Part shown: positions 13,093 through 28,522 of the stretch, one piece after another
Layout: every line of letters starts with the position of its first letter
How positions within the stretch are numbered: position 1 is the first letter of the stretch
DNA from: a virus
IMG/VR virus record: IMGVR_UViG_3300046007_003718
Coordinates: 32,001-96,000 of that record
Reading direction: 5' to 3' (one strand)
Length of the DNA: 64,000 bases
Position numbers and translations under genes: made by a program
The notes under the pieces: generated by a model
Seen by the model: the letters and a program-made list of their open reading frames with translations, nothing else
Told to the model about the DNA's origin: nothing
Database searches by the model: none

Positions 13093-13170
13093 TATCCGGG
13101 CCTGTCCATCAACGAAAGAGGGGGCCTTGCGGCCCCCTCCCTGTCCTGCTCCTCGTTTGTACGCGGTGCC

Positions 13171-13536: not shown

Positions 13537-13594
13537 GGGATTCTCCTGTTCGTTGGCTGCTGAGGCAGTCTAGCACGTTTGTACCGCGTGCGCC

Positions 13595-13885: not shown

Positions 13886-13957
13886 GCTCCCTGTTCGTTG
13901 GCTGCCAGAGCAGCGTATCACAGATTCCAGACGTAGGCCCGATTCGCTGTGAAGCCC

Positions 13958-14060
13958 TGAGAGGCGTTCTACGGGCCTCGGATGCCTTCCCCCATGCTAG
14001 ACCCTTCCCAGACCATGCGAGGCCCTTCTAGGCCCCTTAGAATCGCTCCTAGGCCCTACC
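13958..14060. repeat. Fourth copy of the ~105-bp dispersed element
   Basis: tgagaggcgttctacgggcctcggatgccttcccccatgctagacc. Confidence 0.75.
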
Positions 14061-14140
14061 GGGGGTCACGACCCCATCCCCGGATGCAGAAAGGGGGCCT
14101 TGCGGCCCCCTCCCCGTTTACACGCCCTGTACCTCCCGGC

Positions 14141-14323
14141 CTAGTAGTCGTCCAGCACCTCGTCCAGAAGGTCGCGCAGGCGCTCCACCTCATCCCCGGT
14201 CATGGCGACCGACACCTGCGGGCCGTCCAGCGTGGGGAAGGCGTGGAGGGTGATGTTGGCATCCCCGTCGCCCTTGTCAGTCACGAACACCACGGGGCCG
14301 TGGTAGGTCTCAATGCTGCTCAT
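14141..14323 (-). CDS. Small hypothetical protein
   Basis: AGGAG RBS; TAAACGATG stop/start junction. Confidence 0.6.
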   Translation of the reverse strand: MSSIETYHGPVVFVTDKGDGDANITLHAFPTLDGPQVSVAMTGDEVERLRDLLDEVLDDY

Positions 14324-14326
14324 CGT

Positions 14327-14530
14327 TTACACGCTCCTGTTCTCGTTGTTGAGGTGATGCTTGCCGCCACACTTGGGGCAAGCCCGGACGAACGTGAGTC
14401 GCCCGGTGCTGTTCTCCCTGAGCCAGAGGGTGCCCTCCTTCTCGGGCTTGCCGACGTACATGCTCATCCCCCGCCCGGTGACGGTGTTGCCACCGGGGCA
14501 GGGAGCAGAGATGAATGAGGTGGCCCCCAT
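14327..14530 (-). CDS. Small Cys/His (Zn-ribbon-like) protein
   Basis: CPKCGGKHH; TAAACGATG junction. Confidence 0.55.
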   Translation of the reverse strand: MGATSFISAPCPGGNTVTGRGMSMYVGKPEKEGTLWLRENSTGRLTFVRACPKCGGKHHLNNENRSV

Positions 14531-14533
14531 CGT

Positions 14534-14836
14534 TTACACCCCCTTCTCGTCGTTGGGAAGGAACATGGCCTCGCGCTTGGCAGCCTTGGCGAACGACGAC
14601 CCGCTGATGGAGTACCTGCGGGGCCGGGACGGGGCGGCGATCAGAGCCGCGTGGAACTCGGTCGCCAGCGACTCGGCCTCGTAGGCGCTCGCCAGAGCAA
14701 CGTCGGCCTCCAACCCCTCGGGCAGAGCGTCGGCCTGCCGGTGGTACTCCTCGGCACGGGCTTCCAGCGCGTCCACGATGAACGCGGCCTCACCGATGCA
14801 GAGGTTACGGATGGAGACTCGGTACGGATTACCCAT
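14534..14836 (-). CDS. Hypothetical early protein
   Basis: Start reassigned to MGNPYRV after GAAAGGA RBS and promoter. Confidence 0.6.
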   Translation of the reverse strand: MGNPYRVSIRNLCIGEAAFIVDALEARAEEYHRQADALPEGLEADVALASAYEAESLATEFHAALIAAPSRPRRYSISGSSFAKAAKREAMFLPNDEKGV

Positions 14837-14865
14837 GATGCTGTCCTTTCGGTTGGTGTTGGGGC

Positions 14866-14904
14866 ATTGTAGCACGCCCCTCAGACGGATGCCCTCCCCG
14901 TTTA
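14866..14904 (-). promoter_or_regulatory. Early promoter, TAAACG class
   Basis: TAAACG-N4-GGGCAT-N17-TACAAT; near-duplicate of 15345-15383. Confidence 0.65.
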
Positions 14905-14954
14905 TCCGGGGAGGGGAGGCAGGGCAGGGCGGTGGCCCGCCCTGCCCCTGTCGT

Positions 14955-15308
14955 TTAGACCCCCTGCTCGGTGGTCTCCTCGTCCTGCGGCCCCTCCTCG
15001 TACTCGCGGGCGGCAGCGAGCAGCACCTCGGCAATCTCGCGGGCCTGCTGGGCGGTGAACTTGGCGTGAACGTATCCCTTCTCCTGCCCCTCGGAGGTTG
15101 CCAGCGTCCCCAGCACCATGACCGTCACCTCACCGAACTTTCCGCCAGCGATCTGGTAGTCCTGCCGGTGAGTCGTGAGGGAGTCGTTTCGCTCATGGGT
15201 GAATGAGGTGCCGTCGTTGGTGACGTAGGTGTACGGGCCGACGCCCTCGCCCTGCACCGTGTAGGTGGTGTAGTCGTCGTTCTCGTAGTTGCTGATGTTG
15301 ATGCTCAC
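14955..15308 (-). CDS. Hypothetical early protein
   Basis: GTG after GAGGAG; acidic tail. Confidence 0.6.
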   Translation of the reverse strand: MSINISNYENDDYTTYTVQGEGVGPYTYVTNDGTSFTHERNDSLTTHRQDYQIAGGKFGEVTVMVLGTLATSEGQEKGYVHAKFTAQQAREIAEVLLAAAREYEEGPQDEETTEQGV

Positions 15309-15344
15309 GATGAAACTCCTCGGTTCAGTTGCTTGCTGAGGGGA

Positions 15345-15383
15345 AGTGTACCACACCCCTCGGACGGATGCCCTGCCCGTTTA
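15345..15383 (-). promoter_or_regulatory. Early promoter, TAAACG class
   Basis: TAAACG-N4-GGGCAT-N17-TACACT. Confidence 0.65.
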
Positions 15384-15441
15384 TTCGGGGAGGGGCGAGG
15401 GAGGGGGAGGGGAGGTGGCCCCTCCCCCTCCGGGGTGGTGA

Positions 15442-16203
15442 CTAGGCCCCGTGGGGAGCCGTCACCTTGGGCTTGCGGGTCTTGCGGGCGACCACCTGCA
15501 TACGCTCGCCGCAGCAGGGGCAGATCGGCGTGCCAGCCGCTTCCAGCCACTTGGCCGTCATGTTGAGGTTGTAAACGTCCTTGCCCTCACCGCTGGGGTC
15601 GCAGCCACGGGTGCCGTCCTCCTGCGGGGTGCAGCAGGCGACCTTCACCAGACGGGTGGCCTGCGGCTTGTGGACGACGTTCATGCCCTTGTGCGGGTAC
15701 TCGCCCAGCGACTCGCGCAGGCGGGCAGTCAGGGCCACGAAACGGTCCCCGGCGTAGGTGGCGGTGGGCTTGCCAGCGAGGCCGATGGTGCGAATCATCT
15801 CCACGAACGGACCCTTGTGGCCGTTCTTGTTGCCGTCAATGGCGTGGACAATCTCATGGGCGAGAACGTCCAGCACACCCGGCTCGCGCTCGTCGTTGCC
15901 CAGCGTGTCCTTGCGGCCCGTCTTGGGGCCGATAGCGTGGGCAAGGGCGGGCGACACGGTGATGTGCCGCACGTTGCCCTCGGGCGAGGAAGTCTCATGG
16001 TAGGCCATGCCGACCACGGAACCCTTGCCGCTCTTACCCAGCCACGCCCGCTTGTGCGAAAAGGACAGGTGCGGGGCGACGGTGTAGCCCTCGGGCATCG
16101 GGAAGCCAGCCTCGGCCAGAATGGTGAGCAGGCCGTCAGTTGCGGCGGCGATGTAGGACTCAGGCGTGTCGTGGACCTGAGCGTGAATCGGTGAGTAACC
16201 CAT
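15442..16203 (-). CDS. SprT-like zinc metalloprotease with C-terminal Zn ribbon
   Basis: VLAHEIVH...GHKGPF...IGL; C-terminal CPCC; AAGGAG RBS; TTGACA promoter upstream. Confidence 0.75.
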   Translation of the reverse strand: MGYSPIHAQVHDTPESYIAAATDGLLTILAEAGFPMPEGYTVAPHLSFSHKRAWLGKSGKGSVVGMAYHETSSPEGNVRHITVSPALAHAIGPKTGRKDTLGNDEREPGVLDVLAHEIVHAIDGNKNGHKGPFVEMIRTIGLAGKPTATYAGDRFVALTARLRESLGEYPHKGMNVVHKPQATRLVKVACCTPQEDGTRGCDPSGEGKDVYNLNMTAKWLEAAGTPICPCCGERMQVVARKTRKPKVTAPHGA

Positions 16204-16373
16204 GATGCTGTCTCCTTGGTTGGTTGCTGTACGGGGATTAAACCAGATGGTGTGAGCCGTGTCAAGTGCCCGGTGTGGGCGGCTCGTTTATCCCTGCCCC
16301 GGCAGTATGACAGATGCTCCGGGGGAATACAAGCCCTCCCCGAATCCTCGCTCGGGGAGGGCGTTTAGATGCC

Positions 16374-16613
16374 CTAGAGGTCGGCCTCGTACTCATCGGC
16401 CAGCCGGTCCAGCGTGTAGGCCTGATACTCGGCCTCCCGGTGGGTCTCCATCCACTCACGCTCGCGCTTGGGGTCGTAAGCGAACCCATCCTCATCCCCG
16501 AATCCTGCGGCGATATGCAAGGCATCAGCGGCCTTCTCACGCAGAGCCTCGGCTCCTGCCCTCAGAACCTCCACCCTCTCCTGCTGAATCATCCGGCTTG
16601 TTGCAACACCCAT
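16374..16613 (-). CDS. Hypothetical early protein
   Basis: Start MGVATS after GGGAG; promoter at 16641-16681. Confidence 0.6.
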   Translation of the reverse strand: MGVATSRMIQQERVEVLRAGAEALREKAADALHIAAGFGDEDGFAYDPKREREWMETHREAEYQAYTLDRLADEYEADL

Positions 16614-16678
16614 CGTTGTCTCCCTGTTCGTTGTTGGGGGACCGTAGCACAGATTGGGGAGAGGGCACAAGGCCCCGT

Positions 16679-16864
16679 TTATCCTTCCACCCACGACCAC
16701 ACCTCGGGGTCGGTAGGATGCTGCTCGGGGAGGGTGGCAAGGCGCGGCCATGCAGTCATGCCTTCCTGCTCCATGATGGTGAAGGCCGCGTTTACACGGG
16801 CGGTGATGTTGGTGAACTGCCCCTCACGGAGCCACTCCATGTACCGCTGCTCATCGCTCAACAT
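16679..16864 (-). CDS. Small hypothetical protein
   Basis: MLSDEQRYMEW; operon context. Confidence 0.5.
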   Translation of the reverse strand: MLSDEQRYMEWLREGQFTNITARVNAAFTIMEQEGMTAWPRLATLPEQHPTDPEVWSWVEG

Positions 16865-17023
16865 GACCAAGCCCCCTAGTAAGAATCCACGCATCCAGAG
16901 CATCCTGAACAAACGATGTGATGCGCTCCTGCACCGTATCAAAGTCCACGGTGCCCTCCTGCTTGTCCCACTCAGCGGCGTCCAGCGAAACCTGAACGGA
17001 GATTGGCAGAGAGATGTTGCCGC

Positions 17024-17191
17024 TTACCATGACACTTCCTCCTTGTGCTTACGCTTGCGCGTGTAACGGATGTTTACACGCTCGGGCGCATCCTTGCGCG
17101 AGCGCCTGACCTCAATGCGAACCCGCTGGCGCATACGACGCGCACGCTTAGGCTCAACGAACTTCTCCTCGTCCCGCTCTTGCTCGTACAT
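17024..17191 (-). CDS. 55-aa basic protein with YTRKRKHK motif (ArfA-like tail)
   Basis: Hand translation MYEQERDEEKFVEPKRARRMRQRVRIEVRRSRKDAPERVNIRYTRKRKHKEEVSW; TAGGAGA RBS. Confidence 0.6.
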   Translation of the reverse strand: MYEQERDEEKFVEPKRARRMRQRVRIEVRRSRKDAPERVNIRYTRKRKHKEEVSW

Positions 17192-17254
17192 GGTATCTCC
17201 TAATAGTTATCTATCTAACTAATGAATATCTATCTAACTGCTTGCTGCTCAGAC

Positions 17255-17293
17255 AGCATACCATCTCAGATGAGAGATGCAAGGCCTCGTTTA
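17255..17293 (-). promoter_or_regulatory. Early promoter, TAAACG class
   Basis: TAAACG-N5-TTGCAT-N16-TATGCT. Confidence 0.7.
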
Positions 17294-17620
17294 TTCGCCC
17301 TCAATCTCCATACCAATCGTGAATCCTAGGCTAGCACCAGACTTGGTGTTGTAAACGCCGTCAGGCACCCATCCGCTAACATCGTAGAACGACTCCAACA
17401 CAGTCCCCTTCACGGATTCTAGCGAACGGTGAAGGGTAAACCACACTTCACTCTCATGCACCTTGCGCTCAACTAGAAGCCACGGACGCTCCTGCTGCCC
17501 AGCAACCTCCAACCGAACATTGTCTGGGTCAATGTGGAAATCCTGATCGTAGTCCTCTAGGATTTCCACAATCACCTTATTGGTGATCTGAACATCGTCA
17601 GGGATGCAACTAACACTCAT
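17291..17620 (-). CDS. Hypothetical protein
   Basis: GGAGG RBS; TAAACGATG junction. Confidence 0.6.
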   Translation of the reverse strand: MSVSCIPDDVQITNKVIVEILEDYDQDFHIDPDNVRLEVAGQQERPWLLVERKVHESEVWFTLHRSLESVKGTVLESFYDVSGWVPDGVYNTKSGASLGFTIGMEIEGE

Positions 17621-17623
17621 CGT

Positions 17624-17899
17624 TTAATCCTCCTGTATGATTTCGGCAATATAACCTGCATAGCAGTTAAACTTCTCCTCATCGTTGGCTGATGAAGGAA
17701 CCTCAACATAACCATCGTGAACCCAAACATCATGCCCATCTATGCAACCGGGCTGACCGTCAAAGAGCATACGGCAGACCTGATGTGAAGTGCTGCCGTC
17801 GTCGTAGAACTGCCACCAATCATCAGAGCCAAAGCGGAGGCGATGAAGGGTCACAGTCTCCTGCTCGTACTTCTGGGGAGGCATGATTAAACGCCCCAC
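17624..17899 (-). CDS. Hypothetical protein
   Basis: Operon context; start may be MPPQKY. Confidence 0.55.
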   Translation of the reverse strand: MGRLIMPPQKYEQETVTLHRLRFGSDDWWQFYDDGSTSHQVCRMLFDGQPGCIDGHDVWVHDGYVEVPSSANDEEKFNCYAGYIAEIIQED

Positions 17900-18264
17900 T
17901 CAGAAAGGTTGCCATTGGCACGCTCAGGGACTCGGACACGGTACTCGGGGTAATAGACCTCACCGTTGGTGGTGTCCACGATAGCAACCACTACCCACAC
18001 ACCCTGTGCGTCAGCGTCCACCACAGAGTCGTAGATAGAGGTGTCGGCGTACTCGGCAGCCTCGTCCCACTCATCCTTGCCGTCGTAGAGAACATCGAAG
18101 TCCCCGCCCTTGACGACAGCGATGAAGCGGTACAGGTTGCCGTCAGAATCCCAGAATCCCGACTGCGGGGAGCCATGACGGGGAGTTCCCCACGCACTCT
18201 GAATCCTGTCCATCATCTCCTCAGCCTGCTCGCGCTGCTCAATCTCTGCATCGGTAATGCTCAT
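17887..18264 (-). CDS. Acidic hypothetical protein
   Basis: Start MSITDAE after AAAGGAG. Confidence 0.6.
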   Translation of the reverse strand: MSITDAEIEQREQAEEMMDRIQSAWGTPRHGSPQSGFWDSDGNLYRFIAVVKGGDFDVLYDGKDEWDEAAEYADTSIYDSVVDADAQGVWVVVAIVDTTNGEVYYPEYRVRVPERANGNLSEWGV

Positions 18265-18296
18265 CAGAATCTCCTTTAGTTTGTTGCTGCTTAGAC

Positions 18297-18335
18297 AGCA
18301 TAGCACCTCAGACCTAAGATGCAAGTGCCCGTTTA
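18297..18335 (-). promoter_or_regulatory. Early promoter, TAAACG class
   Basis: TAAACG-N5-TTGCAT-N16-TATGCT. Confidence 0.7.
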
Positions 18336-18556
18336 TTCGTCGTAGTAGTCGAAACTGTCTGAGACCGGACCTTCCTGCTGTAGCAGGGAGAACACTTCCC
18401 ACGCCTCGTCCTCGTCCTCTATGTAGAAAGAAACGTCCCGTAGTCCAAAGCCAGCACCAGAATCGAACTGATAACCCTTAGACTCTCGGATGCCCTCAAA
18501 GAAGTCCTGCAACTCGTTTAGACGCTCAATGGGATATGAAGCAGAAACAACAAACA

Positions 18557-18892
18557 TTATCCCTCCCTCCACTCAGGCCCCTCGTCCAGAATGTCCATAA
18601 CCTGAACATCTCCGGGCTGGCAATCAATAAGGTCATGCCAAGCCCAACGGTCGGGGCAATCATCTGAGGCATCGGTTGTGATGCGAAGGGTGATGGTGTA
18701 AACGCGCATCTCTCTCACGTTCAGAACGTAAGCAGGAAACCTCTCACCACAGTCGTAGCACTTGTAGCCACAGACCAGAACCTCACGGTCATGCTCATCA
18801 ATCTCAACATCATGCCCAGACTGCGAGGTGACGTTCTCAGACTGACAGTTTACACAACACTCGGGATTATCAACAAAGTTTACGGCACTCAT
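18557..18892 (-). CDS. Zn-ribbon protein
   Basis: CVNC...CYDC pairs. Confidence 0.55.
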   Translation of the reverse strand: MSAVNFVDNPECCVNCQSENVTSQSGHDVEIDEHDREVLVCGYKCYDCGERFPAYVLNVREMRVYTITLRITTDASDDCPDRWAWHDLIDCQPGDVQVMDILDEGPEWREG

Positions 18893-18895
18893 CGT

Positions 18896-19075
18896 TTAAC
18901 CATCCTGTCGGGGAGTGATGTACCCAGCCTCAATCAGAGCCGCAGCCATGCGACCGTAAGAGCCTTGCAGGCTCCATGCCATACCTGTATCCACAAGGTA
19001 CTGAAAGAGGTCAATGATACCCTCCTCATCCAACTCACCCTGCTCATACTCCATAATCGAACTAACGTAATCCAT
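18896..19075 (-). CDS. 59-aa small phage protein
   Basis: Hand translation [53 protein letters not shown]...; AAGGAG RBS; below ORF-track cutoff. Confidence 0.65.
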
Positions 19076-19193
19076 TTCTATCTCCTTACCTAGTCAGAGA
19101 AAACGTAAGACCGGCCACTACCCACACGGCCAGAACGCCAACTGCGATTACAATAAAAGTTTCCATCTTGCCCTCCTCGTTGCTTGCCTTGTA

Positions 19194-19233
19194 AGCATAG
19201 GGAATATATCTCACTAATGCAACTATTCGTTTA
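19194..19233 (-). promoter_or_regulatory. Early promoter, TAAACG class
   Basis: TAAACG-N5-TTGCAT-N17-TATGCT. Confidence 0.75.
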
Positions 19234-19455
19234 TTCAGCCTACCACTCAAAGCGAGCGGAAAGAACCTTGTGGTCTGGGAACAAACACCTAACCTGCTCC
19301 ATCGCTCGGTCCACCATCTCTGTGATGATTTCACTATCCTCAAGGTTTCCCCAAACATAGTCTAGCGTGTCCTCGTTCTGCTCGGTCAGGCTTGCCTCAT
19401 AGGTAAAGTTATCGGCAATACCATTCTCACTAACCATCTCAACGGTAACAAACAT

Positions 19456-19812
19456 TTAGATGCGCTCCTCGCTCATTGTGTCCTGTCGGATGTTCTCCAT
19501 CTCCTGTTCGTTGAGCCATGCGTAAGCCTCGGCACGACTCTCCTCGTCAGCCGCAGCCTGTCGCAGAATCTCGTTCCACTCCTCGGGGTCGGTGACATAG
19601 GACTCAGCATCAATCTCGTCCCGACGACGCCGATACTCCTCCTCAATCTGAGCCTCAATGATGCCCTGTCGGTACTCAACCCAGAGAGTCAGAGCCTCAT
19701 CAAGAATGACGAACTGCTCAATGGTGAGGTCTCCGTTTACAGTCAGGTCGTCCAGACGGTGATAGAGAGCCGTAGCCTTGTCCTGCATAATCATAACATC
19801 GTCCTGCATCAT
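19456..19812 (-). CDS. Acidic hypothetical protein
   Basis: AAAGGAG RBS; promoter directly upstream. Confidence 0.6.
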   Translation of the reverse strand: MMQDDVMIMQDKATALYHRLDDLTVNGDLTIEQFVILDEALTLWVEYRQGIIEAQIEEEYRRRRDEIDAESYVTDPEEWNEILRQAAADEESRAEAYAWLNEQEMENIRQDTMSEERI

Positions 19813-19842
19813 TGGTCTATCTCCTTTCGTGCTTGCTCGTCA

Positions 19843-19882
19843 AGCATACAGGTTAATAGGAAAAAGTGCAACCCCTCGTTTA
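19843..19882 (-). promoter_or_regulatory. Early promoter, TAAACG class
   Basis: TAAACG-N5-TTGCAC-N17-TATGCT. Confidence 0.75.
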
Positions 19883-20251
19883 TTCAGCGTAGAAGGGGTC
19901 GGGGCACCAATGCGAAGCAATCTCCATCTCTCGCTTCCACGAACGCTCCTCCTCCACACACTCGGAGAATCGCTCAATAATGATAGAACCGATGCCCTCC
20001 AACTCCTTGCGGTCTGTATCAATCTGGTTCATCGTGCAGTACGAAGCATCCTCAGCATAATCCCAATCACCATCAGGCTCCTTGGTCAGCACAGAGAAGC
20101 GAAGCAGAGGCTCGTCGGTAGGGTCGGTAGGGTCGAAGTCCCCATACCATCCCTCGCCAATGTAGTCCCACTCAACCTTCACAGTCTGGTCGTCGTTCGT
20201 AACCTCTAGTGGAATAAACGACTCAATCTCAGTTGTCCAATCCTTACTCAT
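19880..20251 (-). CDS. Acidic hypothetical protein
   Basis: GGAGG RBS; IGEGWYGDFDP...PLLRF...DASYCT. Confidence 0.65.
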   Translation of the reverse strand: MSKDWTTEIESFIPLEVTNDDQTVKVEWDYIGEGWYGDFDPTDPTDEPLLRFSVLTKEPDGDWDYAEDASYCTMNQIDTDRKELEGIGSIIIERFSECVEEERSWKREMEIASHWCPDPFYAE

Positions 20252-20593
20252 CTTTCCTCCTAGCGTCCGTAGTAGTCTGGGTGATTCATACGATACTTAG
20301 CCTCCTGCTTCATGGCTGCGATACACTCATTATCGCAGCGAGCAGGCAAACCAAGCGTTACCACGTTATACAGCATAACACTTCCAATCACAGAAAGCGA
20401 AGCGTAAAGAATAACCTTCCACATCATCGGTTTCTCCATTCAGTATAAACGCCCACAACTTCATTGTAGATATCGAACGGCTCATCTAGAGTGTGGCCTG
20501 CATCGTCCCGATAGCCACAGTCGTCGTTAGAACCAACATCGCATGAAAGATAGCACGCAAGACCTTGGAAATAGTAGTCAGGCTCTAGCATGT

Positions 20594-20803
20594 TTATTCT
20601 CCATCCTCGGGGTAGCCAGCCTGTGAGCGCAGGCTATCAATGAGTGACTGAATAAACTCAACATTCTGCTCGTCAGCATCCTCGTAAGATGAGGAGTCAC
20701 GAATCTCCTCAACATTCTGCCAGAGAGACCAAAGAATGTAGTCCAAGTCCTCAATCGGCAGAGTCACGTTTACATCTCGGTTCCAAAAGTCGTTGGTAGT
20801 CAT
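20594..20803 (-). CDS. Small acidic hypothetical protein
   Basis: GGAGG RBS; TAATG coupling. Confidence 0.6.
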   Translation of the reverse strand: MTTNDFWNRDVNVTLPIEDLDYILWSLWQNVEEIRDSSSYEDADEQNVEFIQSLIDSLRSQAGYPEDGE

Positions 20804-21007
20804 TACATAACCTCCGGTGTAGGAATGTGCAGTCGAAGTCCACCAGCCTCGTAATCGTTCAGAGCATAGTGGATAGCATCAGGCAGGGTAGCAATCATAG
20901 TCTCTACCTCCCCACCGTCGCCGGGACCACCATGATACCAGATATCCCAGCACCTATCATCCATCGCGGGATAAATGTCGTACACGAAGCCCTCGCCGTA
21001 GATACGA

Positions 21008-21331
21008 TCAATAGTCCTCATCGTCGTCCTCGTCCATCTCAAAGTCGAACTCCACGATGAGGCGAGCGACACGACCATCGTTGTCGTACTCAACGAACAC
21101 CGGATAAACGCCGTCACCCCAGCCGGTGCTGGTGCAGACCGCATCAGAAAAACGACCCTGAGTAGAGAACTGCCCCGCCCGCTCGTCGCTCAGGCTAGCC
21201 GCACAAGCGCGACCATATGGGGAATCCTCACCGTACTCGCCGTCAAGGACGTAGCAGGGGTCCACAACGAACACCTGACCAGAATCAACGGGAACCTGTC
21301 CCACCTTCACGCGCATACCAGACCTACTCAT
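21008..21331 (-). CDS. DUF4241-like protein
   Basis: VDSGQVFVVDPCY...TGWGDGVYPV motifs; GGAGG RBS. Confidence 0.65.
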   Translation of the reverse strand: MSRSGMRVKVGQVPVDSGQVFVVDPCYVLDGEYGEDSPYGRACAASLSDERAGQFSTQGRFSDAVCTSTGWGDGVYPVFVEYDNDGRVARLIVEFDFEMDEDDDEDY

Positions 21332-21359
21332 TACTGCCTCCTTTGTTGCTTGCTCGTCA

Positions 21360-21400
21360 AGTGTAGCAGATCAAGTCTGCCGATTGCAACTACTCGTTTA
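21360..21400 (-). promoter_or_regulatory. Early promoter, TAAACG class
   Basis: TAAACG-N5-TTGCAA-N18-TACACT. Confidence 0.75.
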
Positions 21401-21591
21401 GATGCGGGTACGCTTGCTGCGCTGATTGACCCTCATCAGAATCTCGTAAACCTCAGCCTCATTCACCGCCTCATGCAGAGAATCAAACTCAGCATCCGTG
21501 AACTCGCTCTCATCAATCACGATAAGATCATCCTCGTCGCATCCACCCCAACTGCCGTCAGCGGCGCTCATCCAGATCACACGACCCATGA

Positions 21592-21849
21592 CTAGGCCTC
21601 CCGAATGATCGTAGAGATATACTCAGCGAGCATACCACGCTCATCAGAGTCGTCAGGAAGGGGAATAACGATGCTGCCCACATTGGTCTTAGTGCCGTGG
21701 GCAGTCGTGGACTCAATCAGGATGTTTATACGACCACCCGGCTTGGCAAAGATGCCGACCTCGTAAGTGCGAGCGTAATCCTTTCCTGCATCACGCTCCA
21801 CCTTGTAGATATAGGCCACACCGTTTACATCGTTATTGGTACCAATCAT
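21592..21849 (-). CDS. Hypothetical protein
   Basis: Operon context. Confidence 0.55.
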   Translation of the reverse strand: MIGTNNDVNGVAYIYKVERDAGKDYARTYEVGIFAKPGGRINILIESTTAHGTKTNVGSIVIPLPDDSDERGMLAEYISTIIREA

Positions 21850-21850
21850 A

Positions 21851-22279
21851 TTATGCCTTCCTTTCGTAAGAATCGTACTTTTCGTTTAGAATCGGTCGAA
21901 ACTTCTGCTCAACAAGCGCCTGAGCAGTTTCATACACTTCCTGAGCAAATGCGTTTGTCCACGCCCCGGTCATATCAAAAGAGTCAGGGAGATAAGTGTC
22001 GAACAACTCATCCACCAACTCGCAGGGAGAGGGCCAATAAACGCTGTCCACGTTCTTATCCCAATACTCCCATGCGATGTTAGCGAATACCTTGCCCACA
22101 TACTCTGCATTGTTATTGGAATAAATGACCACACCATAGATGCTCCCATCGAAGGGGTCCACATACGGAGTAAAGGTGATGCCTGCATCGTACTCCACGG
22201 TCTCCTGAAAAGTCTCGCGGAAGTCTTGCAGCACAGCCTTGCTAACAGAACCATAGGACTCACACATTAGGCATCCCAC
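21851..22279 (-). CDS. Hypothetical protein
   Basis: Operon context; start may be MCESYG. Confidence 0.55.
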   Translation of the reverse strand: MGCLMCESYGSVSKAVLQDFRETFQETVEYDAGITFTPYVDPFDGSIYGVVIYSNNNAEYVGKVFANIAWEYWDKNVDSVYWPSPCELVDELFDTYLPDSFDMTGAWTNAFAQEVYETAQALVEQKFRPILNEKYDSYERKA

Positions 22280-22422
22280 CCACTCACGCGGGCCTGCTGC
22301 TTGGCCTTACGGCGCTGGGTCTTGCGACTCTGGATGCCATGCGTCTGAGAGTGCATGATAGCGAACCGCTGGCCGGTCGTGCTGGTGTCCTGCCGGAACT
22401 TCTTTCGCTGCTTGTTGGTCAC
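22267..22422 (-). CDS. Small basic protein
   Basis: AAAGGAG RBS; KQRKKFR...SRKTQRRKAKQQAR. Confidence 0.55.
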   Translation of the reverse strand: MTNKQRKKFRQDTSTTGQRFAIMHSQTHGIQSRKTQRRKAKQQARVSGWDA

Positions 22423-22450
22423 GATCATCTCCTTTGCTTGATGCTCTAGC

Positions 22451-22490
22451 ATCATACAGTATGGAATCCAAAAGTGCAACTGCTCGTTTA
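22451..22490 (-). promoter_or_regulatory. Early promoter, TAAACG class
   Basis: TAAACG-N5-TTGCAC-N17-TATGAT. Confidence 0.75.
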
Positions 22491-22706
22491 TTTGCCTTCC
22501 TCTAGGGCAATCAGAGCATTGACAATCTTGCGGGCCTTCTCCTCTGCTTGCTTCATGTAAACGCTACGGTCGCCCTTCACATCCTTACGGACAACGATGA
22601 TACAGACCTCTCCACCCTCCTCATCCATGACCTCAATATGGTCTGCATGAGGAAGGGCAAAGTCGGGTTCCTCGTTCCAATACCAAGCATACATCATCTA
22701 AATCAC

Positions 22707-23174
22707 CTATCCGTAGATGAGCCGACCGAACACAGCAATCTGAACCAGAACATCGGCGCAGTCTGCGTCAAGATAGCCGGGGTCGTTCTCACGAAGGGCA
22801 CGCTGAATGTAGCCGGTGATGCTGGTGTTAGCAGGAGGCTCCTCCTGAACAAAGGTCTGGAAAGCCTTAGTCAGATTCTCAGCATTGACCGTATAAATAG
22901 GGGATTCGGTCTCAGCCACATCCTCATTCTCGCGGAGAGTAACCTCGTACCACAGTTCATCAAGAATGTCTCCACTCTCAGGCTTAGTTACCTTAATGTT
23001 TAGAGCGTCAGCCCAATAGAAGGAAGCGCCATAGGAACCATCAAAAGCCCCGACAAGCACAGCGTCCACCATATGCGCGGTAATAGGAAGGGTCGTCGTG
23101 ACCACACCAACCACCGTGGACTTGTCGTACTTCTCCTCTAGAGCCTTAAGACTCTCCGATACATAGTCACTCAT
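22707..23174 (-). CDS. Phage hypothetical protein
   Basis: C-terminal DADCADVLVQIAVFGRLIYG; start after GAAAGGAG. Confidence 0.65.
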   Translation of the reverse strand: MSDYVSESLKALEEKYDKSTVVGVVTTTLPITAHMVDAVLVGAFDGSYGASFYWADALNIKVTKPESGDILDELWYEVTLRENEDVAETESPIYTVNAENLTKAFQTFVQEEPPANTSITGYIQRALRENDPGYLDADCADVLVQIAVFGRLIYG

Positions 23175-23203
23175 ATTGCTCCTTTCGTTTTCCATCTGAA
23201 TAG

Positions 23204-23243
23204 ATGGTATCAGATCAACCAACCAACTGCAACTACTCGTTTA
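23204..23243 (-). promoter_or_regulatory. Early promoter, TAAACG class
   Basis: TAAACG-N5-TTGCAG-N17-TACCAT. Confidence 0.7.
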
Positions 23244-23477
23244 TACTCCACGCCAACCAGAACAGGTGCCGCATGTGCAACAGCAACTTGTGGGGGATGC
23301 AAGCCAAAGGTAAGCGATAGCCCTCTCAGCATAACGTCCTTTACTATCGGCACAATAAATACGCTGCCAAATAGAGATTGTATCATCGCAGAAGTAACGC
23401 CTATGGGGGTTATCCCATGCCCTCTTATAGATAGGCTTATTAAACCACTCATTATTAGAGCATCCACATCCACACAT
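23241..23477 (-). CDS. Cys-rich small protein
   Basis: AAAGGAGG RBS; CGCGC and CCCTCGTC ends. Confidence 0.5.
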   Translation of the reverse strand: MCGCGCSNNEWFNKPIYKRAWDNPHRRYFCDDTISIWQRIYCADSKGRYAERAIAYLWLASPTSCCCTCGTCSGWRGV

Positions 23478-23502
23478 AAAAGCCTCCTTTAATGATTTAT
23501 AC

Positions 23503-23596
23503 TACCCCTAGCGGGAGTCGAACCCGCGATAAACTTCCGCGTAAGCCAAGCGTCCTTGTGCGTTACCGGCGTCGTTGCCGCTAGACCATTAGGGGC
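23503..23596 (-). ncRNA. tRNA-like RNA with a long non-canonical anticodon arm
   Basis: Acceptor stem GCCCCUA/UAGGGGU, D-arm GUC-UAGCGGCAAC-GAC, T-arm GCGGG-UUCGACU-CCCGC; central arm ends in CAAG-GACG-CUUG; no encoded CCA. Confidence 0.75.
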
Positions 23597-23602
23597 ATGA
23601 GT

Positions 23603-23630
23603 ATTATAGACGGTTCCACAATCAAGTCAA
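23603..23630 (-). promoter_or_regulatory. Consensus-like promoter for the tRNA-like RNA
   Basis: TTGACT-N16-TATAAT ending 6 nt before the acceptor stem. Confidence 0.7.
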
Positions 23631-23639
23631 AGGTAGGCT

Positions 23640-23846
23640 TGACGTAACAATGCCCGCTCCCTGCTCACCCGTCACCGACAACCGATTCCTTTAGTTTACT
23701 TATTATTAGTATAAATGGCTCTCGCGCCTAACGTCCCATATTGGTTGTTAGGATTTCCCGACCTACCAATCGGTTTCTTACGGAGATTCCTCCACCCCAC
23801 TAGGTCAAGAGTGGTAGCCCTCGCCTAGTAGGTCGTGAGAACCGCT
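23640..23846 (-). ncRNA. Putative structured RNA downstream of the hammerhead
   Basis: Non-coding; helices CGACCUAC/GUAGGUCG, ACUAGG/CCUAGU, GGAG/CUCC, CCUAAC/GUUAGG, AACCGAUU/AAUCGGUU. Confidence 0.5.
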
Positions 23847-23889
23847 GACGCCTCTCGGCGTTTCGTCCTATCAGGACTCGTCAGAGCGG
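23842..23889 (-). ncRNA. Hammerhead ribozyme (type I)
   Basis: CCGCU-CUGACGA-GUCCU-GAU-AGGAC-GAAA-CGCC-GAGA-GGCG-UC-AGCGG: complete core, three stems, GUC cleavage triplet. Confidence 0.92.
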
Positions 23890-24041
23890 CTAGTTGCCAT
23901 TACCTTCTTATGAACCTGCATAACCCAACCATCCTCAAAGTCGTGAGCATCACACGCCTCGCCAAGACTTTCGTAGGGGCCATAAGCCATGTACCCCGTA
24001 GAGAGATTACCGACAAGAAATACAAAAGTGTAGTCACCCAT
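23871..24041 (-). CDS. Small hypothetical protein whose 3' end overlaps the hammerhead
   Basis: MGDYTFVF after AAAGGAG; TTGCAT-N17-TATGCT promoter at ~24072-24100. Confidence 0.6.
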   Translation of the reverse strand: MGDYTFVFLVGNLSTGYMAYGPYESLGEACDAHDFEDGWVMQVHKKVMATSRSDES

Positions 24042-24403
24042 GAATCTATCTCCTTTCTCGCTTGCCCAACAAGCATACAGCACTCAATCTAGAAATGCAA
24101 GCCTTAGTCGGACTCTGAATAAACGTAACTGACCTCTCCCGAAAGATGATCTGAATGGCGATCATCAAAGAAACGATTGTCGTAAGTACCCCAGACTTCC
24201 TCTCCGGGGACATTAGACGCTGCTGCTTTAGACGCATCAAGGATAGAGTTAGCCAAACTCATAGCCTCGTCTGGATAGAGAGATAGGATAAACCCGAAAG
24301 TGCTATCTCCCGAATCAATCACAACTTGGTCCTCCACAACTGAAACATAGAACTTACTCATACTCACTCCAAAGTCTGCTTGCCACACACCTGTAGATTA
24401 GCA

Positions 24404-24436
24404 GCCCCCTATCCCCGTGTCAAGGGATAGGGGGCA
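24404..24436 (-). terminator. Hairpin overlapping a TTGACA promoter
   Basis: gccccctatccc/gggatagggggc; TTGACA in the loop, TAATCT 17 nt downstream. Confidence 0.6.
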
Positions 24437-24442
24437 ACCGAT

Positions 24443-24931
24443 CTAAATGGCCGCGCCGAAGAACTCGGGCTGCTCCTCTGGGGTGTCCACGGCCTGCTGC
24501 TCAAAGGCGGGAGTCGGAGTAGAGAACTGCATGAGCGAGTAGTCGCCGCTCAGGACAAGAGCGACCTTAGTGAGAATGCTCCTCAGAGCCTTATTCTCCT
24601 CCTCCACAGCCTCTAGACGCTGAATAAACTGAATGGAAACGGCCTCGTCGTCCATGCGCTCGTTGAGCATACCCTCAACGACATACTCCACACGGGAGTC
24701 GAAGTCGTCAATGTCGTCGGAATCGAAGGTGCGATAGCGAAGGGCCTCCTCAACTCCGTCAGAGAAGTCAAGGTTGTTGTCAATGTAGTCCTGCACGCGA
24801 CCATCAATGTCAGACTCATCCACGACAGTCTCAGCGATATCGCGGATAAACGACTCGCTGTTATAGACAGCCTCGGTGGCCTTCTCGTCCACCAGAGTCT
24901 CAATGTCTGCGGGCCAATCCTCAAAACTCAT
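24443..24931 (-). CDS. Highly acidic protein with coiled coil
   Basis: Asp/Glu-rich; own promoter (TTGACT...TATGCT ~24964-24991). Confidence 0.65.
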   Translation of the reverse strand: MSFEDWPADIETLVDEKATEAVYNSESFIRDIAETVVDESDIDGRVQDYIDNNLDFSDGVEEALRYRTFDSDDIDDFDSRVEYVVEGMLNERMDDEAVSIQFIQRLEAVEEENKALRSILTKVALVLSGDYSLMQFSTPTPAFEQQAVDTPEEQPEFFGAAI

Positions 24932-24994
24932 TACAGTCTCCTCTCGTTGATTGCTTCCCTAGAAGCATACAGTATGGATTCTAAAAGTCAAGGG

Positions 24995-25414
24995 CTAGTG
25001 CCAACCCTCGTCCTGCTCATCTAAACACTCAGTCAGAGCCGCGATAGCACTCTCCAAAGCGGGAGGGGTATAATCCAGACCAGCAATCGTGCCATTGATT
25101 AGCGCACGAATCTCGTCCTCGTACAGATAAACAGGCATCTGCCCCTCATCAAGCACGTTTTCCCAATCGCTAGAGATAACGCTAAGAGATGCAACTCCGC
25201 TCAGAGGCACGACGCACTCGTAAACAGGAGCAGCATCGCGGATAAACGACCGTCTTGCCATGAAAGGCTTACCCACAGAAAGATGCTTCTGAAAATCAAT
25301 AAGACGACGCTGCTTTGCAGGCTCGGGATTCTCCCTAGCCCACTCAGTAGTGTTCTCCCAATCAGTATAAAGGGTGCGCCCATCAACAGTACGAATCTGG
25401 ATGTAAGAACTCAC
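24995..25414 (-). CDS. Hypothetical protein
   Basis: GGTGGAG RBS. Confidence 0.6.
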   Translation of the reverse strand: MSSYIQIRTVDGRTLYTDWENTTEWARENPEPAKQRRLIDFQKHLSVGKPFMARRSFIRDAAPVYECVVPLSGVASLSVISSDWENVLDEGQMPVYLYEDEIRALINGTIAGLDYTPPALESAIAALTECLDEQDEGWH

Positions 25415-25622
25415 TACTCCACCTCAATATCGTTAGAAAACTTCATAACGTCCCAGCCATAATAACCCTCAATCAGAGAAGCGGCCTCCTCAATCGCAAC
25501 CTCCCGGTCAAAATCAGGAGGAGCAATCACCGAAGTTGTGAGGGTGAAATAATCTCCAATAAAAGTCACATTCATCATCTATCCATCTCCTTTCATCGCT
25601 ACGGGAGTAGCGTAGCATAGAA

Positions 25623-26156
25623 TCACTTAACAGGCAAGGTCCGAAGGTGACGGACCCTATCTCTTGCCCAACGCCTACGAGGCTCGGTAAACGGGTAGTT
25701 GTTCTCAATGCAACCATCCAGCATCTCCAAAACCCTGCTCTCGTCAGACCCCGTTTGTACCGCGAAGTCGTGAATCATCCCGCGAGCGATCTTAAGGTCG
25801 TGAAGGTTCTTTTCCCTGAGAAGTTTACGGTCGTCAGTAGCCTTGTTCTTACGAGCCTGCCGAATAAGACGCTTGGCCTCATCCTTTACCTCACCAACAA
25901 GGTGCTTGTTTGCACCAAGGAAGGTCTCAATGCAGTTGGAACCGGCGATGAGGTCGCCCCCATTGTCCACATCAGAAAGGTGGAACTCATACCGGATTCC
26001 ACCGTGACCACACACCTCGCAGGTAGTGTAGTTACCGGGACCGCGATCAACAGCCCCGACAAGACGAAGCCGGTGAGCATCCCTCTGCTCCTCGGGAACA
26101 CGAATGTCCTCAAAGAACTTCTGGATACCACCGGCCTGTCGCTTGCTGAACTCCAT
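25623..26156 (-). CDS. Zn-finger protein
   Basis: CEVCGH..IRYEFH...GSNCI; own promoter TTGATT-N17-TATGCT. Confidence 0.65.
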   Translation of the reverse strand: MEFSKRQAGGIQKFFEDIRVPEEQRDAHRLRLVGAVDRGPGNYTTCEVCGHGGIRYEFHLSDVDNGGDLIAGSNCIETFLGANKHLVGEVKDEAKRLIRQARKNKATDDRKLLREKNLHDLKIARGMIHDFAVQTGSDESRVLEMLDGCIENNYPFTEPRRRWARDRVRHLRTLPVK

Positions 26157-26218
26157 TAGAATCCCCTCTCGCTTGCTTACGAAGGAAGCATAGCATACCC
26201 ATTAGGGGGAATCAAGCC

Positions 26219-26578
26219 CTAGTAGTGACCATCATCATAATCACAGGGGAAATCAGGCTCGCGGGGTTCATCATCGTACCATCCACTTGCAGCCTCATAC
26301 TCAGACTCAGCGATATCACAACAAGCCTCAAAACTCAACTCAGCAACGATGTATCGTTTAGATGCCTCTGGCTCATCCTTAACGATACTGTCGTACAAAC
26401 TCTGAATCTCCTCCTGAGTACCAATCTCGTCTGGAACCTTGTCGTAGTTGATGATATCTCCCGTTTCGGGGTCTGTATCATACAGCCCGTACAAACCGCG
26501 CTCATAGACGAGTTCTGCCTGCTTCTGAAAAGAATACTCAGGCGGGTCGTAATAAGAATCTGGCATATGAAACGACAC
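26219..26578 (-). CDS. Acidic hypothetical protein
   Basis: GTG after GGAGG. Confidence 0.6.
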   Translation of the reverse strand: MSFHMPDSYYDPPEYSFQKQAELVYERGLYGLYDTDPETGDIINYDKVPDEIGTQEEIQSLYDSIVKDEPEASKRYIVAELSFEACCDIAESEYEAASGWYDDEPREPDFPCDYDDGHY

Positions 26579-26807
26579 TACAAGTCCTCCTTTGTAACAG
26601 GAATACAGTTTTCGCAATATGGAAGCCCCTCAGTCCAAGTAACTGCCTTGGTTGCTGGGTTAATCAGCACCACTTTGTCGGTCTCAACCGTATGACCACA
26701 CATACATACAGTAGTCTTTGTGTCCATCTTTCCTCCTCTCCCCCTATTGCTCTGTCGCTCAGACAGCATAGCATAGGTCGTTGGCTAAAAGCAAATGCTC
26801 GTATAAA

Positions 26808-26927
26808 TCATCGGGCGTGCCAAAAGTTTGGCTTAGGAACGCTAGCCTTGCGAGGCTTGCTGACCTTCATCTTAGCAACACGAACCTTACGCGGCTTGCT
26901 AACACCTGTACGACGAACCTTACGCAT
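26808..26927 (-). CDS. 39-aa highly basic repeat peptide
   Basis: MRKVRRTGVSKPRKVRVAKMKVSKPRKASVPKPNFWHAR; AAAGGAG RBS. Confidence 0.6.
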   Translation of the reverse strand: MRKVRRTGVSKPRKVRVAKMKVSKPRKASVPKPNFWHAR

Positions 26928-26985
26928 GTAATCTCCTTTGTTTGATCTATCTAACTTACGAAGTAACTCTATCAACTTACATATC

Positions 26986-27174
26986 TTAAGTCAAGTCATC
27001 CTCGTCATCTTCATCTATAACTATAAATGTCCTTATGAACATCAATAACATTCCTGAGATTATAGCCCATACCCCGGCGTTCCAATCTCCTGTAAGCAAA
27101 TAAAAGGTGCCGAAAAAGAAGCAGACGAGAGCAACGAATAAACCCGCTGCTCTAACCAAGTCAGTCATTAACAA
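26986..27174 (-). CDS. Two-TM membrane protein
   Basis: Hydrophobic helices, acidic tail. Confidence 0.55.
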   Translation of the reverse strand: MLMTDLVRAAGLFVALVCFFFGTFYLLTGDWNAGVWAIISGMLLMFIRTFIVIDEDDEDDLT

Positions 27175-27457
27175 TCTCTTTCCACGCTGCCCATGCCGCC
27201 TTACTTGCTCTATCTAGTCGAGACCATCGCTCTTTGTAGAATCTAACTCTAGTCTGAATAGCATTGTAGGATTCCATCTGCATCTCTACTTTGAGAATGT
27301 CTTTACTTCCGGGGAAGTCTGGTACGTTGGGTTTGCGAATGGTGCTTGCTATATCCCTCGCTATGAGGTAATCGCGGTGCGCCTCATTTGCACGACGAGA
27401 TATAGCCTTCCAAGCCCTATAGAACAAATCTGCGTTCTTTGGGCTAGGCTCGGACAT
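27161..27457 (-). CDS. Hypothetical helical protein
   Basis: Overlapping operon context. Confidence 0.55.
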   Translation of the reverse strand: MSEPSPKNADLFYRAWKAISRRANEAHRDYLIARDIASTIRKPNVPDFPGSKDILKVEMQMESYNAIQTRVRFYKERWSRLDRASKAAWAAWKEIVND

Positions 27458-28286
27458 AACGAGTACCCCTACGCTCTCCCTCAATGTTTACACGCTCATC
27501 GTTCTGTAGAACATAACGCACGCTAGTCCACTCAGTAGTCGAAAGACCGAAGTGCGAGATGAGTTCTGCCTTAGACGTTGGCCCATTGTCTGAGATAAAC
27601 TGAACAATAACATTCATCACATCAGTATCAACCGTAGGCGTCTTGTCCTCAACGATAACCTCATAAGTGCGACCGGGGACAGTATAGTTTGTCCCTCGCT
27701 TGGTGCCGTTCTTAACTACCTTGCCTGTCTCAACCGCAGCGTTGATTACCTCGGAATAGATCGAAGCCGGGATAAGGTCGCCAATATGCTTCTTAGTAAC
27801 AGGCTGGTCTGACTCCTCTACAAAGAGGATAAACTCGTCGCGTACAGCAGCAATCCTCTGAGCCTTCTCGTCGCTCTGCTTGCGCCCCGGCTTGTACCGA
27901 AGGACGCGACCATACTCATCAACGGGGGCACCGCGAGCAATAGCAGCCTGATCGGCTCGCTCCTGACACTTGGCAATCCACTTTCCCAAGTAATCCTCAC
28001 GATGGTTAATAGCCTCGTCCTCGGGCAGAGAGCGAAGCAACTCCATACGGTTATCATGCACCTCGTTTAGATCCTCAAAAGGAAGCGTAATGCGATCATT
28101 GTCTGATGTAAGAATAGTTGCTTCCTTATCCTGTGCCGCAAGCACAAGTGCATATCGAAAGCCACCCTCGCTATTCCAAAAACTAATCGTGTCACCGCGA
28201 ACGGGCGCAACCTTGGTCTGCATATCAACCTCCTTTGACTTAACATTTCTCTTAGTAAGTTTGTTACTCACTCGTTTCTTACCCAT
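27444..28286 (-). CDS. Putative DNA-binding protein with tandem winged-helix-like repeats
   Basis: Two C-terminal repeats ending GTKRGTNY and GERRGTRY. Confidence 0.55.
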   Translation of the reverse strand: MGKKRVSNKLTKRNVKSKEVDMQTKVAPVRGDTISFWNSEGGFRYALVLAAQDKEATILTSDNDRITLPFEDLNEVHDNRMELLRSLPEDEAINHREDYLGKWIAKCQERADQAAIARGAPVDEYGRVLRYKPGRKQSDEKAQRIAAVRDEFILFVEESDQPVTKKHIGDLIPASIYSEVINAAVETGKVVKNGTKRGTNYTVPGRTYEVIVEDKTPTVDTDVMNVIVQFISDNGPTSKAELISHFGLSTTEWTSVRYVLQNDERVNIEGERRGTRYVRA

Positions 28287-28297
28287 AAGTTACCTAC

Positions 28298-28522
28298 CTA
28301 ACTCTCTACTGTCAAGGCCTCATCAAAGATCGCATTTAGACTATCTGCGATCACATCCCTCTCTTTAGTCAGACAAGGGGAACATTGTGCCTCGGGGTTA
28401 TACCGTGAGAGGCGAGCATCGCACCGGGTACAATGCCGCACCTCCGCAGGCTTGTCGTCCACGAAGTCAAATGGGACCATATCGCCCATAGATTTCGCAG
28501 GAATAATCTCATCAAATCGCAT
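28298..28522 (-). CDS. Zn-finger protein
   Basis: CTRCDARLSRYNPEAQCSPC; GGAGG RBS. Confidence 0.6.
   Translation of the reverse strand: MRFDEIIPAKSMGDMVPFDFVDDKPAEVRHCTRCDARLSRYNPEAQCSPCLTKERDVIADSLNAIFDEALTVES

Follow-up and report, generated by a model that had tools for sequence, protein, structure and literature searches.

We identified, on the minus strand of an uncultured phage genome, a 94-nt RNA element that is derived from a tRNA, has no anticodon arm, and forms the 3' terminal module of a ~390-nt cassette headed by a hammerhead ribozyme. The explanation that we favour, although we put it forward tentatively, is that RNase P and RNase Z use this element, which does not decode, as a tRNA-derived processing handle. 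The stretch of DNA that was analysed (the window) is 64,000 nucleotides long and comprises bases 32001-96000 of a 110-kb uncultured virus record that is ~70% complete. The carrier is a tailed phage with genes for a portal, a terminase and a DnaE-type polymerase; the polymerase is only ~31% identical to those of cultured phages, and the phage is present in many lake-water metagenomes.

The cassette is surrounded by a long run of small minus-strand ORFs whose families are uninformative, and the neighbouring genes proved to be ORFans, with no informative family in Pfam or PHROG. For the 171-aa protein adjacent to the element, seven homologous clusters were found. In the window and in one related contig (L021), the genes of one block (A) precede the cassette and those of another (B) follow it, an order that is reversed in a second relative (L002). 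Comparison of window positions 17000-28500 with positions 1-11000 of L002 indicates that these two blocks of small early genes have been swapped around the cassette, which marks the rearrangement junction. No RtcB, integrase or reverse transcriptase gene was found in the 110-kb, 70%-complete record, which is no proof of their absence from the phage. Elsewhere in the window, at positions 8001-20000, the G+C content is 54-63% versus 36-43% across most of the window; possible explanations for this G+C-rich stretch are acquisition, a different class of genes or a chimeric assembly.

The element and its parts are arranged as follows:

23503..23596, minus strand: tRNA-derived RNA without an anticodon, 94 nt; G1 is 23596, position 72 is 23504 and position 73 is 23503
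23590..23596, minus strand: 5' strand of the acceptor stem, pairing with 23504-23510; 7 bp in all variants
23571..23586, minus strand: D arm, a 3-bp stem and a 10-nt loop with the elbow GG; stem invariant
23537..23569, minus strand: long bulged hairpin replacing the anticodon arm, 13 bp (3+4+2+4, with single-base bulges)
23528..23536, minus strand: variable-region linker of 9 nt, its final C being a candidate C48; conserved except for one A/G change
23511..23527, minus strand: T arm, a 5-bp stem and a canonical 7-nt T loop; invariant

The acceptor, D and T arms of the original prediction are thus all in place on the minus strand, and the bulged helix that substitutes for the anticodon arm is present exactly as first described, with 3, 4, 2 and 4 bp beneath a 4-nt loop (23554-23551). 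Three bases lie between the acceptor and D stems, and a single base separates the D stem from the 33-nt hairpin. Two variants have G:U and the third G:C as the first acceptor pair (1:72), every variant has C:G at positions 3:70, and a candidate eighth acceptor pair is not conserved; the D loop differs among variants by one base change and one insertion. If the extra base after the acceptor stem is ignored, putative tertiary partners (U8, A14, G15, G18, G19, A21, C48 and the T-loop residues) can all be assigned from the sequence.

The original prediction held that such an RNA cannot decode, and this claim is supported. Run without introns, ARAGORN reports the element as a 96-nt tRNA-Cys(aca), but only by accepting mismatches in the anticodon stem and a 20-nt 'variable arm' that is unpaired, and with introns allowed it reports Val(gac) or Ala(ggc). 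For the three sequence variants described below, the calls without introns are Cys, Cys and none (the last for L003), and those with introns are Val, the supposed introns being 9, 6 and 12 nt long and placed at positions 35, 38 and 43, with an anticodon that reads gac or cac depending on the variant. We rejected an intron-containing tRNA on these grounds, as neither the intron position nor the mature anticodon is consistent among homologues. Rfam 15 returned nothing on the element at gathering score, the tRNA model RF00005 gave no reportable match to it at E<=10, and a permissive search recovered only a generic 17-18-nt T arm under tmRNA models, this arm being a local match to the T arms of the tmRNA/tRNA clan models. 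Canonical tRNA features that are retained include the 7-bp acceptor stem, the canonical T loop and the D-loop GG; a 5-bp anticodon stem with a 7-nt loop, U33 and a defined anticodon was found in none of the three variants.

In all three variants, the fold with the long hairpin is favoured by 3-7.6 kcal/mol over the sole cloverleaf-like alternative, in which a second D-3' motif closes the D stem, leaving an insert in the D loop and a relic anticodon arm. This alternative was rejected because its energy is worse and the relic arm is not conserved. Since the ARAGORN calls are inconsistent and the Rfam matches are limited to the T arm, we conclude that the RNA is tRNA-derived and lacks an anticodon arm. 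That it is nonetheless a decoding tRNA, either canonical with oddities or matured through removal of a short intron by some activity, is exceedingly improbable. Such a reading could draw on the Cys(aca) and Val calls and on a relic 5-7-5 arm with a plausible loop that can be drawn in the window's alternative fold, but the calls disagree and their anticodon stems are all mismatched, the relic arm contains two G-G mismatches and is absent from L002 and L003, where four extra bases lengthen the hairpin, and the Rfam tRNA model does not recognize the element.

The missing loop also bears on what the RNA might do. An anticodon loop is needed by anticodon nucleases, for the specifier contact of T-boxes and for the activation of RelA in the ribosomal A site. 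As this loop is absent here, the suggestion that the element acts as a decoy for anticodon nucleases or for T-box/RelA sensing found no support, and decoy roles that require an anticodon are unlikely; we count them as improbable versions of the small-RNA function considered below.

With regard to its origin, the element has in common with a phage tRNA-Glu(CUC) gene (L005) the sequence of the D arm and the D-3'/anticodon-5' joining motif. Two adjacent ~20-nt segments of the element resemble each other (p ~0.01), and the second of these matches the D-3'/anticodon-5' junction of the phage tRNA-Glu. From this resemblance and this match, we infer that the hairpin probably arose by a partial internal duplication of ~20 nt in a Glu-like tRNA.

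A sister phage carries 12 ordinary tRNA genes (10 different tRNAs), none of which encodes CCA; sister-phage clusters of ten tRNAs comprise Asn, Gly, Arg, Val, Leu, Ile, Leu, Glu, Gln, Lys. As no ordinary tRNA gene was found in the 110-kb record itself, the tRNA cluster of the window phage is probably in the missing 30% of the record. Outside the window, the phage encodes a member of a family relevant to tRNA 3' ends:

G000:C1:109800-110183 (locus L028), outside the window: PolyA_pol/CCA-adding-enzyme-family protein, 91 bits

The original prediction noted that the element encodes no CCA, and we confirmed that none follows position 73 (23503). However, because the sister tRNAs are all CCA-less and the phage has a gene of the CCA-adding-enzyme family, this lack is normal for the lineage and uninformative.

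Exact and gapped pattern scans of IMG/VR, JGI metagenomes and GTDB (one genome per species) found carriers of the element among IMG/VR contigs (three) and JGI metagenome contigs (five), and these carriers are syntenic relatives. The sequences comprise three variants, all from one uncultured phage lineage: the first is that of the window and L020, the second is shared by L002, L004, L017 and L019, and the third by L003, L021 and L022. L020 is a new window-type contig from the JGI scan, the remaining JGI sequences (L017, L019, L021 and L022) being copies of the other variants. The other IMG/VR matches were rejected as ordinary tRNA-Glu genes (L005 and L006) or chance coding matches (L007-L010 and L023), as was a chance match in JGI (L018); the GTDB pattern scan produced four chance coding matches and no cellular or prophage homologue. 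BLASTN searches with the locus and with the element against 50,697 phage records gave no match. A covariance model constructed from the three variants separates true members, with scores of 118-130 bits, from ordinary tRNAs, none of which exceeds 35 bits.

Conservation in relatives had been named as a check on the original prediction, and it is evident in these three variants. Outside the hairpin, the core of the element is 96% identical between the phages G001 and G002, compared with 72-96% for their ten orthologous true tRNAs and ~30-80% for neighbouring proteins of these phages. All 22 core pairs are 100% paired in all variants and only pair 1:72 varies, so covariation reveals little about the core. 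The hairpin forms in each variant (13, 11-14 and 15 bp) with the same tetraloop cap, and variation is concentrated in its middle, where the 5' strands are unlike in both sequence and length and four bases are missing from one 3' strand; the hairpin tip and base, the 9-nt linker and most of the hairpin 3' strand are conserved. On its own, the hairpin folds more stably than dinucleotide shuffles, with z-scores of -2.7 in the window and -1.6 and -3.5 in the other variants, and native strand pairs mostly, although not always, pair better than chimeras, indicating modest co-adaptation. Covariation, a second check named with the original prediction, rests on three variants: the middle of the hairpin varies and still pairs, while the core pairs are near-invariant and the support is thin.

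These observations can be set against the possibility that the element is a functionless remnant, either a decaying tRNA pseudogene or a leftover of recombination or integration. A plausible origin by a ~20-nt internal duplication (p ~0.01) and a location at the junction of rearranged gene blocks are what such a remnant might be expected to display. However, its core is conserved beyond the neighbouring proteins and at the upper end of the range of true tRNAs, its hairpin stays paired despite indels, the entire flanking cassette is conserved as well, and no integrase was found in the 110-kb record; this explanation is disfavoured, and we regard it as very unlikely.

The original prediction missed that the element belongs to a larger conserved RNA unit. 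From 5' to 3', this cassette consists of the hammerhead, a 150-240-nt structured RNA, an AU-rich linker, an invariant block, a long hairpin and the tRNA look-alike. Its upstream modules are:

23841..23890, minus strand: type I hammerhead ribozyme, with a predicted cut between 23847 and 23846
23697..23846, minus strand: 5' structured domain of the non-coding RNA (ncRNA), starting at the hammerhead cut
23669..23696, minus strand: invariant 28-nt block, within an exact 34-nt identity with L002 over 23663-23696
23609..23679, minus strand: long imperfect RNA hairpin, with the block as its 5' strand and the '-35/spacer' region as its 3' strand

The hammerhead matches RF00163 over its full length and with a complete core (E = 4.7e-5), at 29 bits against a gathering score of 34; it has three stems, of which stem I is open, and a cleavage-site triplet that ends in H. 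Every variant retains it, stems I and III having undergone compensatory changes, and it is predicted to be active. Its stem I and core overlap the last codons and stop of the longest reading of the upstream ORF (23871-24083). No Rfam family besides the hammerhead matches the cassette, whose motifs are all single-copy in the genome. Between the hammerhead cut and the tRNA look-alike lies a structured ncRNA of ~240 nt (23609-23846). Its 5' domain is 96% identical in L020 and partly conserved, with an extra insert, in L021, where an internal stem (23752-23747 with 23732-23727) has compensatory changes on both strands. In L002, this domain is replaced by unrelated sequence (~50% in global alignment), around which the hammerhead, the 34-nt block, the base of the long hairpin and the element are all kept; the cassette thus has conserved ends and a swappable middle. 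The long hairpin, predicted from four variants with RNAalifold, has 27 pairs, 8 of which have pair-keeping changes on both sides, and is followed by a -10 hexamer, 3-6 variable bases and the element.

Pairing of the post-cleavage 5' end with the spacer forms in the minimum free energy folds of the window and L020. Manual pairing gives the same stem with only ~5 bp in L002, and L021 keeps it through one-sided changes only; a closing stem between the new 5' end and the spacer is possible. Within the invariant block (23663-23696), a Shine-Dalgarno-like motif also precedes a short frame that opens with TTG and runs for 19, 14 or 27 codons, depending on the variant. As only the first 4-7 codons are conserved, and both length and sequence diverge thereafter, we rejected this short frame as a peptide gene and consider constraint at the RNA level the more likely explanation.

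The original prediction further assigned the element a dedicated consensus promoter, and a suitable site is present directly upstream:

23603..23630, minus strand: sigma-70-type promoter-like site, with the -35 at 23625-23630 and the -10 at 23603-23608

This site agrees with the consensus at 11/12 positions, has a 16-nt spacer, ends 6 nt before G1 and is the best in 8 kb, a region whose total of promoter-like sites does not exceed that of shuffled sequence. All variants share the same -10 box and spacer. The window, L020 and L002 have the -35, which L021/L003 lack; in these last two, the -10 box is 3 nt from G1 and a start would fall within the acceptor stem. Exact conservation of the -10 hexamer is most simply read as that of a real promoter, while the invariant spacer is explained also by RNA pairing, as the '-35/spacer' sequence doubles as the 3' strand of the conserved long hairpin. 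With no -35 and with a -10 box 3 nt from G1, the element of L003/L021 would be released from read-through RNA and could hardly be a primary transcript. We conclude from these arrangements that read-through RNA is probably the source of at least part of the element's output, and in one lineage of all of it, and that the promoter is an optional extra. The claim of a consensus promoter before G1 therefore stands for the site itself but not for its being dedicated, given that one of the three variants has no -35 and that the same sequence serves as a hairpin strand.

Available RNA data consist of assembled contigs of four metatranscriptome runs over 23300-23900, and contigs cannot show RNA ends. 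Contigs with 95-99% identity were found on 23615-23889 only; they originate from seawater and salt-marsh metatranscriptomes, whereas the DNA is from lake water. Two of them end at 23615, 18 nt before G1, which, contig ends not being RNA ends, is a weak hint in favour of the processing handle. No RNA contig of the four runs covers the element itself, a result that does not prove non-expression; small structured RNAs are often lost from such libraries.

On the other side of the element, the conserved unit gives way to a gene that differs among relatives:

23241..23477, minus strand: first downstream ORF, 78 aa and Cys-rich, with a strong ribosome-binding site; it starts 26 nt past the element

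This ORF has Cys clusters at both ends and no match in Pfam or PHROG, and it is missing from the same position in L020, L002 and L021. No terminator was found between the element and the ribosome-binding site and ORF. The L020 contig is near-identical to the window up to acceptor position 72 and unrelated directly after it; homology between the phages stops at acceptor position 72/73, and the discriminator base that follows is unconserved (A, U, U, G). Taken together with the differing downstream genes, this stop and the variable discriminator place the end of the conserved unit exactly at the 3' terminus of the acceptor stem, the expected cutting site of RNase Z.

The sequence of events that we propose for the processing handle begins with cleavage of an early polycistronic transcript by the hammerhead at 23847|23846, which would give the ncRNA a 5'-OH end. 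Host RNase P would then cut directly 5' of G1 (23596) and so set the 3' end of the ncRNA, with the block:spacer hairpin just upstream protecting this new end. A cut after position 73 by RNase Z or an equivalent enzyme would free the downstream early mRNA, and the phage's own CCA-adding enzyme may add CCA to the 94-nt RNA thus cut out. With a closed hairpin where the anticodon arm would be, this tRNA-shaped by-product would be barred from translation. In two of the three lineages, the internal promoter may additionally drive a transcript that has the element as its leader and its start at or close to G1. Ribozyme chemistry aside, the enzymatic cuts and the order of these events are what we infer from the layout of the locus.

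Several lines of evidence argue for this handle. The features that processing enzymes are expected to engage, namely the 12-bp stack of acceptor and T stems, the T loop and the D-loop GG of the elbow, have been kept within an intact tRNA core under strong constraint, while variation that preserves pairing is confined to the middle of the hairpin, which RNase P and RNase Z do not need. The element is positioned between an ncRNA headed by a hammerhead and a ribosome-binding site with its ORF, its 3' border coincides with the homology boundary, and the conserved ends of the cassette flank variable cargo in L002. In L003/L021 it must come from read-through RNA, and the lineage matures CCA-less tRNAs and has a CCA-adding-enzyme-family gene. 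Finally, there are analogues in t-elements, MALAT1/mascRNA and the phage RNAs processed by RNase P. A processing tag was among the roles first proposed for the element, and of these it is the best fit to a last cassette module at which homology stops; the cuts themselves are predicted. Several points weigh against the handle. The core pairs of the element are near-invariant across three variants of a single lineage, which leaves thin covariation support, and the strands of the hairpin are no more than modestly co-adapted in the comparison with chimeras. Processing alone would not obviously call for the strictly conserved tip of the hairpin, the 9-nt linker or the conserved hairpin 3' strand, which hint at an added function; the near-consensus promoter in two lineages suggests that the element may matter as its own primary transcript, and a plain tRNA would signal processing equally well, so that loss of the anticodon needs an explanation of its own.

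Some of these same points favour the main alternative, in which the element is itself a functional small RNA, a tRNA scaffold that displays the hairpin or the elbow and acceptor end in order to bind or titrate a factor. Candidate partners include a tRNA-targeting defence enzyme that recognizes the elbow or acceptor, a modification enzyme and the CCA-adding enzyme. Processing would then be merely the way in which the RNA is made, and the two roles are not exclusive. The hairpin tip, base, linker and most of the 3' strand are conserved beyond the needs of RNase P and RNase Z, conservation of the core equals that of the best-conserved true tRNA, the near-consensus promoter is placed such that transcripts of the window, L020 and L002 would begin at G1 or close to it, and engineered tRNA scaffolds are processed and accumulate stably. 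However, the promoter is not conserved in L003/L021, the ORFan neighbours point to no partner, the discriminator, which is important to most enzymes that bind acceptor ends, is unconserved, and the element has no RNA coverage in the four metatranscriptome runs. We consider a small-RNA function possible but doubtful.

We also considered whether the element is aminoacylated after CCA addition and used outside decoding, either in the manner of tmRNA or as an amino-acid donor. The intact acceptor/T minihelix and elbow, the CCA-adding-enzyme-family gene of the phage and the local match of Rfam tmRNA models to the T arm are in keeping with charging. Against it, the alanine identity pair of tmRNA, G3:U70, is replaced by C:G in all variants, and a discriminator that changes from A to U or G is incompatible with a fixed synthetase identity. 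Furthermore, there is no mRNA-like domain, ARAGORN finds no tmRNA, and the tmRNA match covers the generic 17-18-nt T arm only. Charging is, in our estimation, quite unlikely.

The processing handle that we favour has counterparts in known systems. Wilusz and colleagues reportedly described, in 2008, a tRNA-like module at the 3' end of MALAT1/mascRNA, and the present locus likewise has a tRNA-like structure at the 3' end of an ncRNA. In MALAT1/mascRNA and MEN-beta, RNase P acts at this module to make the 3' end of the ncRNA, which an adjacent stable structure protects, and in MALAT1/mascRNA, a small tRNA-like RNA that does not decode is set free by RNase Z and CCA addition (PMC4919922). Phage RNAs that are processed by RNase P are also documented (PMC4919922). 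The MALAT1/mascRNA system differs in that it is eukaryotic and nuclear and is protected by a triple helix; here, the long hairpin would provide protection, the hammerhead would make the 5' end and an mRNA follows. [quoted passage not shown] 2007, PMC1920247), and an excised t-element can receive non-encoded C/CA (PMC1920247). As with t-elements, our element is a non-decoding tRNA-like fold between two functional RNAs of one transcript. It differs in belonging to a bacteriophage rather than an organelle, in having a complete D arm and elbow and a long closed hairpin, and in being joined to a self-cleaving ribozyme and a structured ncRNA, and its processing is predicted.

Engineered RNAs offer a further parallel. 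Ponchon and Dardel are said to have found, in 2007, that putting a hairpin in the place of a tRNA's anticodon arm yields an RNA that undergoes tRNA-like processing and stabilisation. Ribozyme/tRNA-flanked designs combine a hairpin in a tRNA arm with a hammerhead that defines the other end (PMC3401473). These designs are man-made and place their cargo within the tRNA part, whereas the cargo of the phage cassette is upstream of the tRNA-like part. Among natural RNAs, tmRNA and YrlA (RF02553) also keep the acceptor/T arm and elbow and have a long helix in place of the anticodon arm. However, tmRNA has G3:U70, no D stem and an mRNA-like domain, while the element has C:G at 3:70 and a D stem; in YrlA, the 5' and 3' ends are on the 'anticodon' side, with a Ro-binding helix, while the ends of the element are in its acceptor stem and its distal helix is capped by a tetraloop. 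Neither the tmRNA nor the YrlA Rfam models match the element beyond the T arm. The element also resembles tRNA-Glu, in the D arm and D-3'/anticodon-5' motif, and the acceptor, T arm and length classes are tRNA-like; compared with tRNA-Glu, the element lacks the anticodon loop, has an extra base between acceptor and D stems and a 9-nt variable region, and has G:U at 1:72 in two variants.

A broader proposal, which we regard as improbable in its entirety, is that the whole unit is an undescribed, self-contained system by which a phage makes ncRNAs. The hammerhead would define the 5' end, a generic module made up of the invariant block, the long hairpin and the anticodon-less tRNA, which recruits RNase P and RNase Z, would define and protect the 3' end, and the cargoes between them would be swapped; cleavage may remodel the long hairpin through pairing of the freed 5' end with the spacer, so that ribozyme action would be coupled to a structural switch, and the CCA-tailed look-alike could then act as a regulator or decoy.

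To our knowledge, non-decoding tRNA-shaped RNAs have hardly been described in bacterial viruses. The hammerheads of phages were found in intergenic regions, and their purpose has been an open question since (PMC3088659). The locus described here links these two subjects, and asks whether tRNA look-alikes serve as punctuation in phage transcripts and whether hammerheads release defined ncRNAs; natural variants with other cargo or without the internal promoter make both questions directly testable. If confirmed, the cassette would represent, in a virus of prokaryotes, the equivalent of the t-element and MALAT1-mascRNA mechanisms, as well as a natural precedent for ribozyme/tRNA-flanked RNA expression designs.
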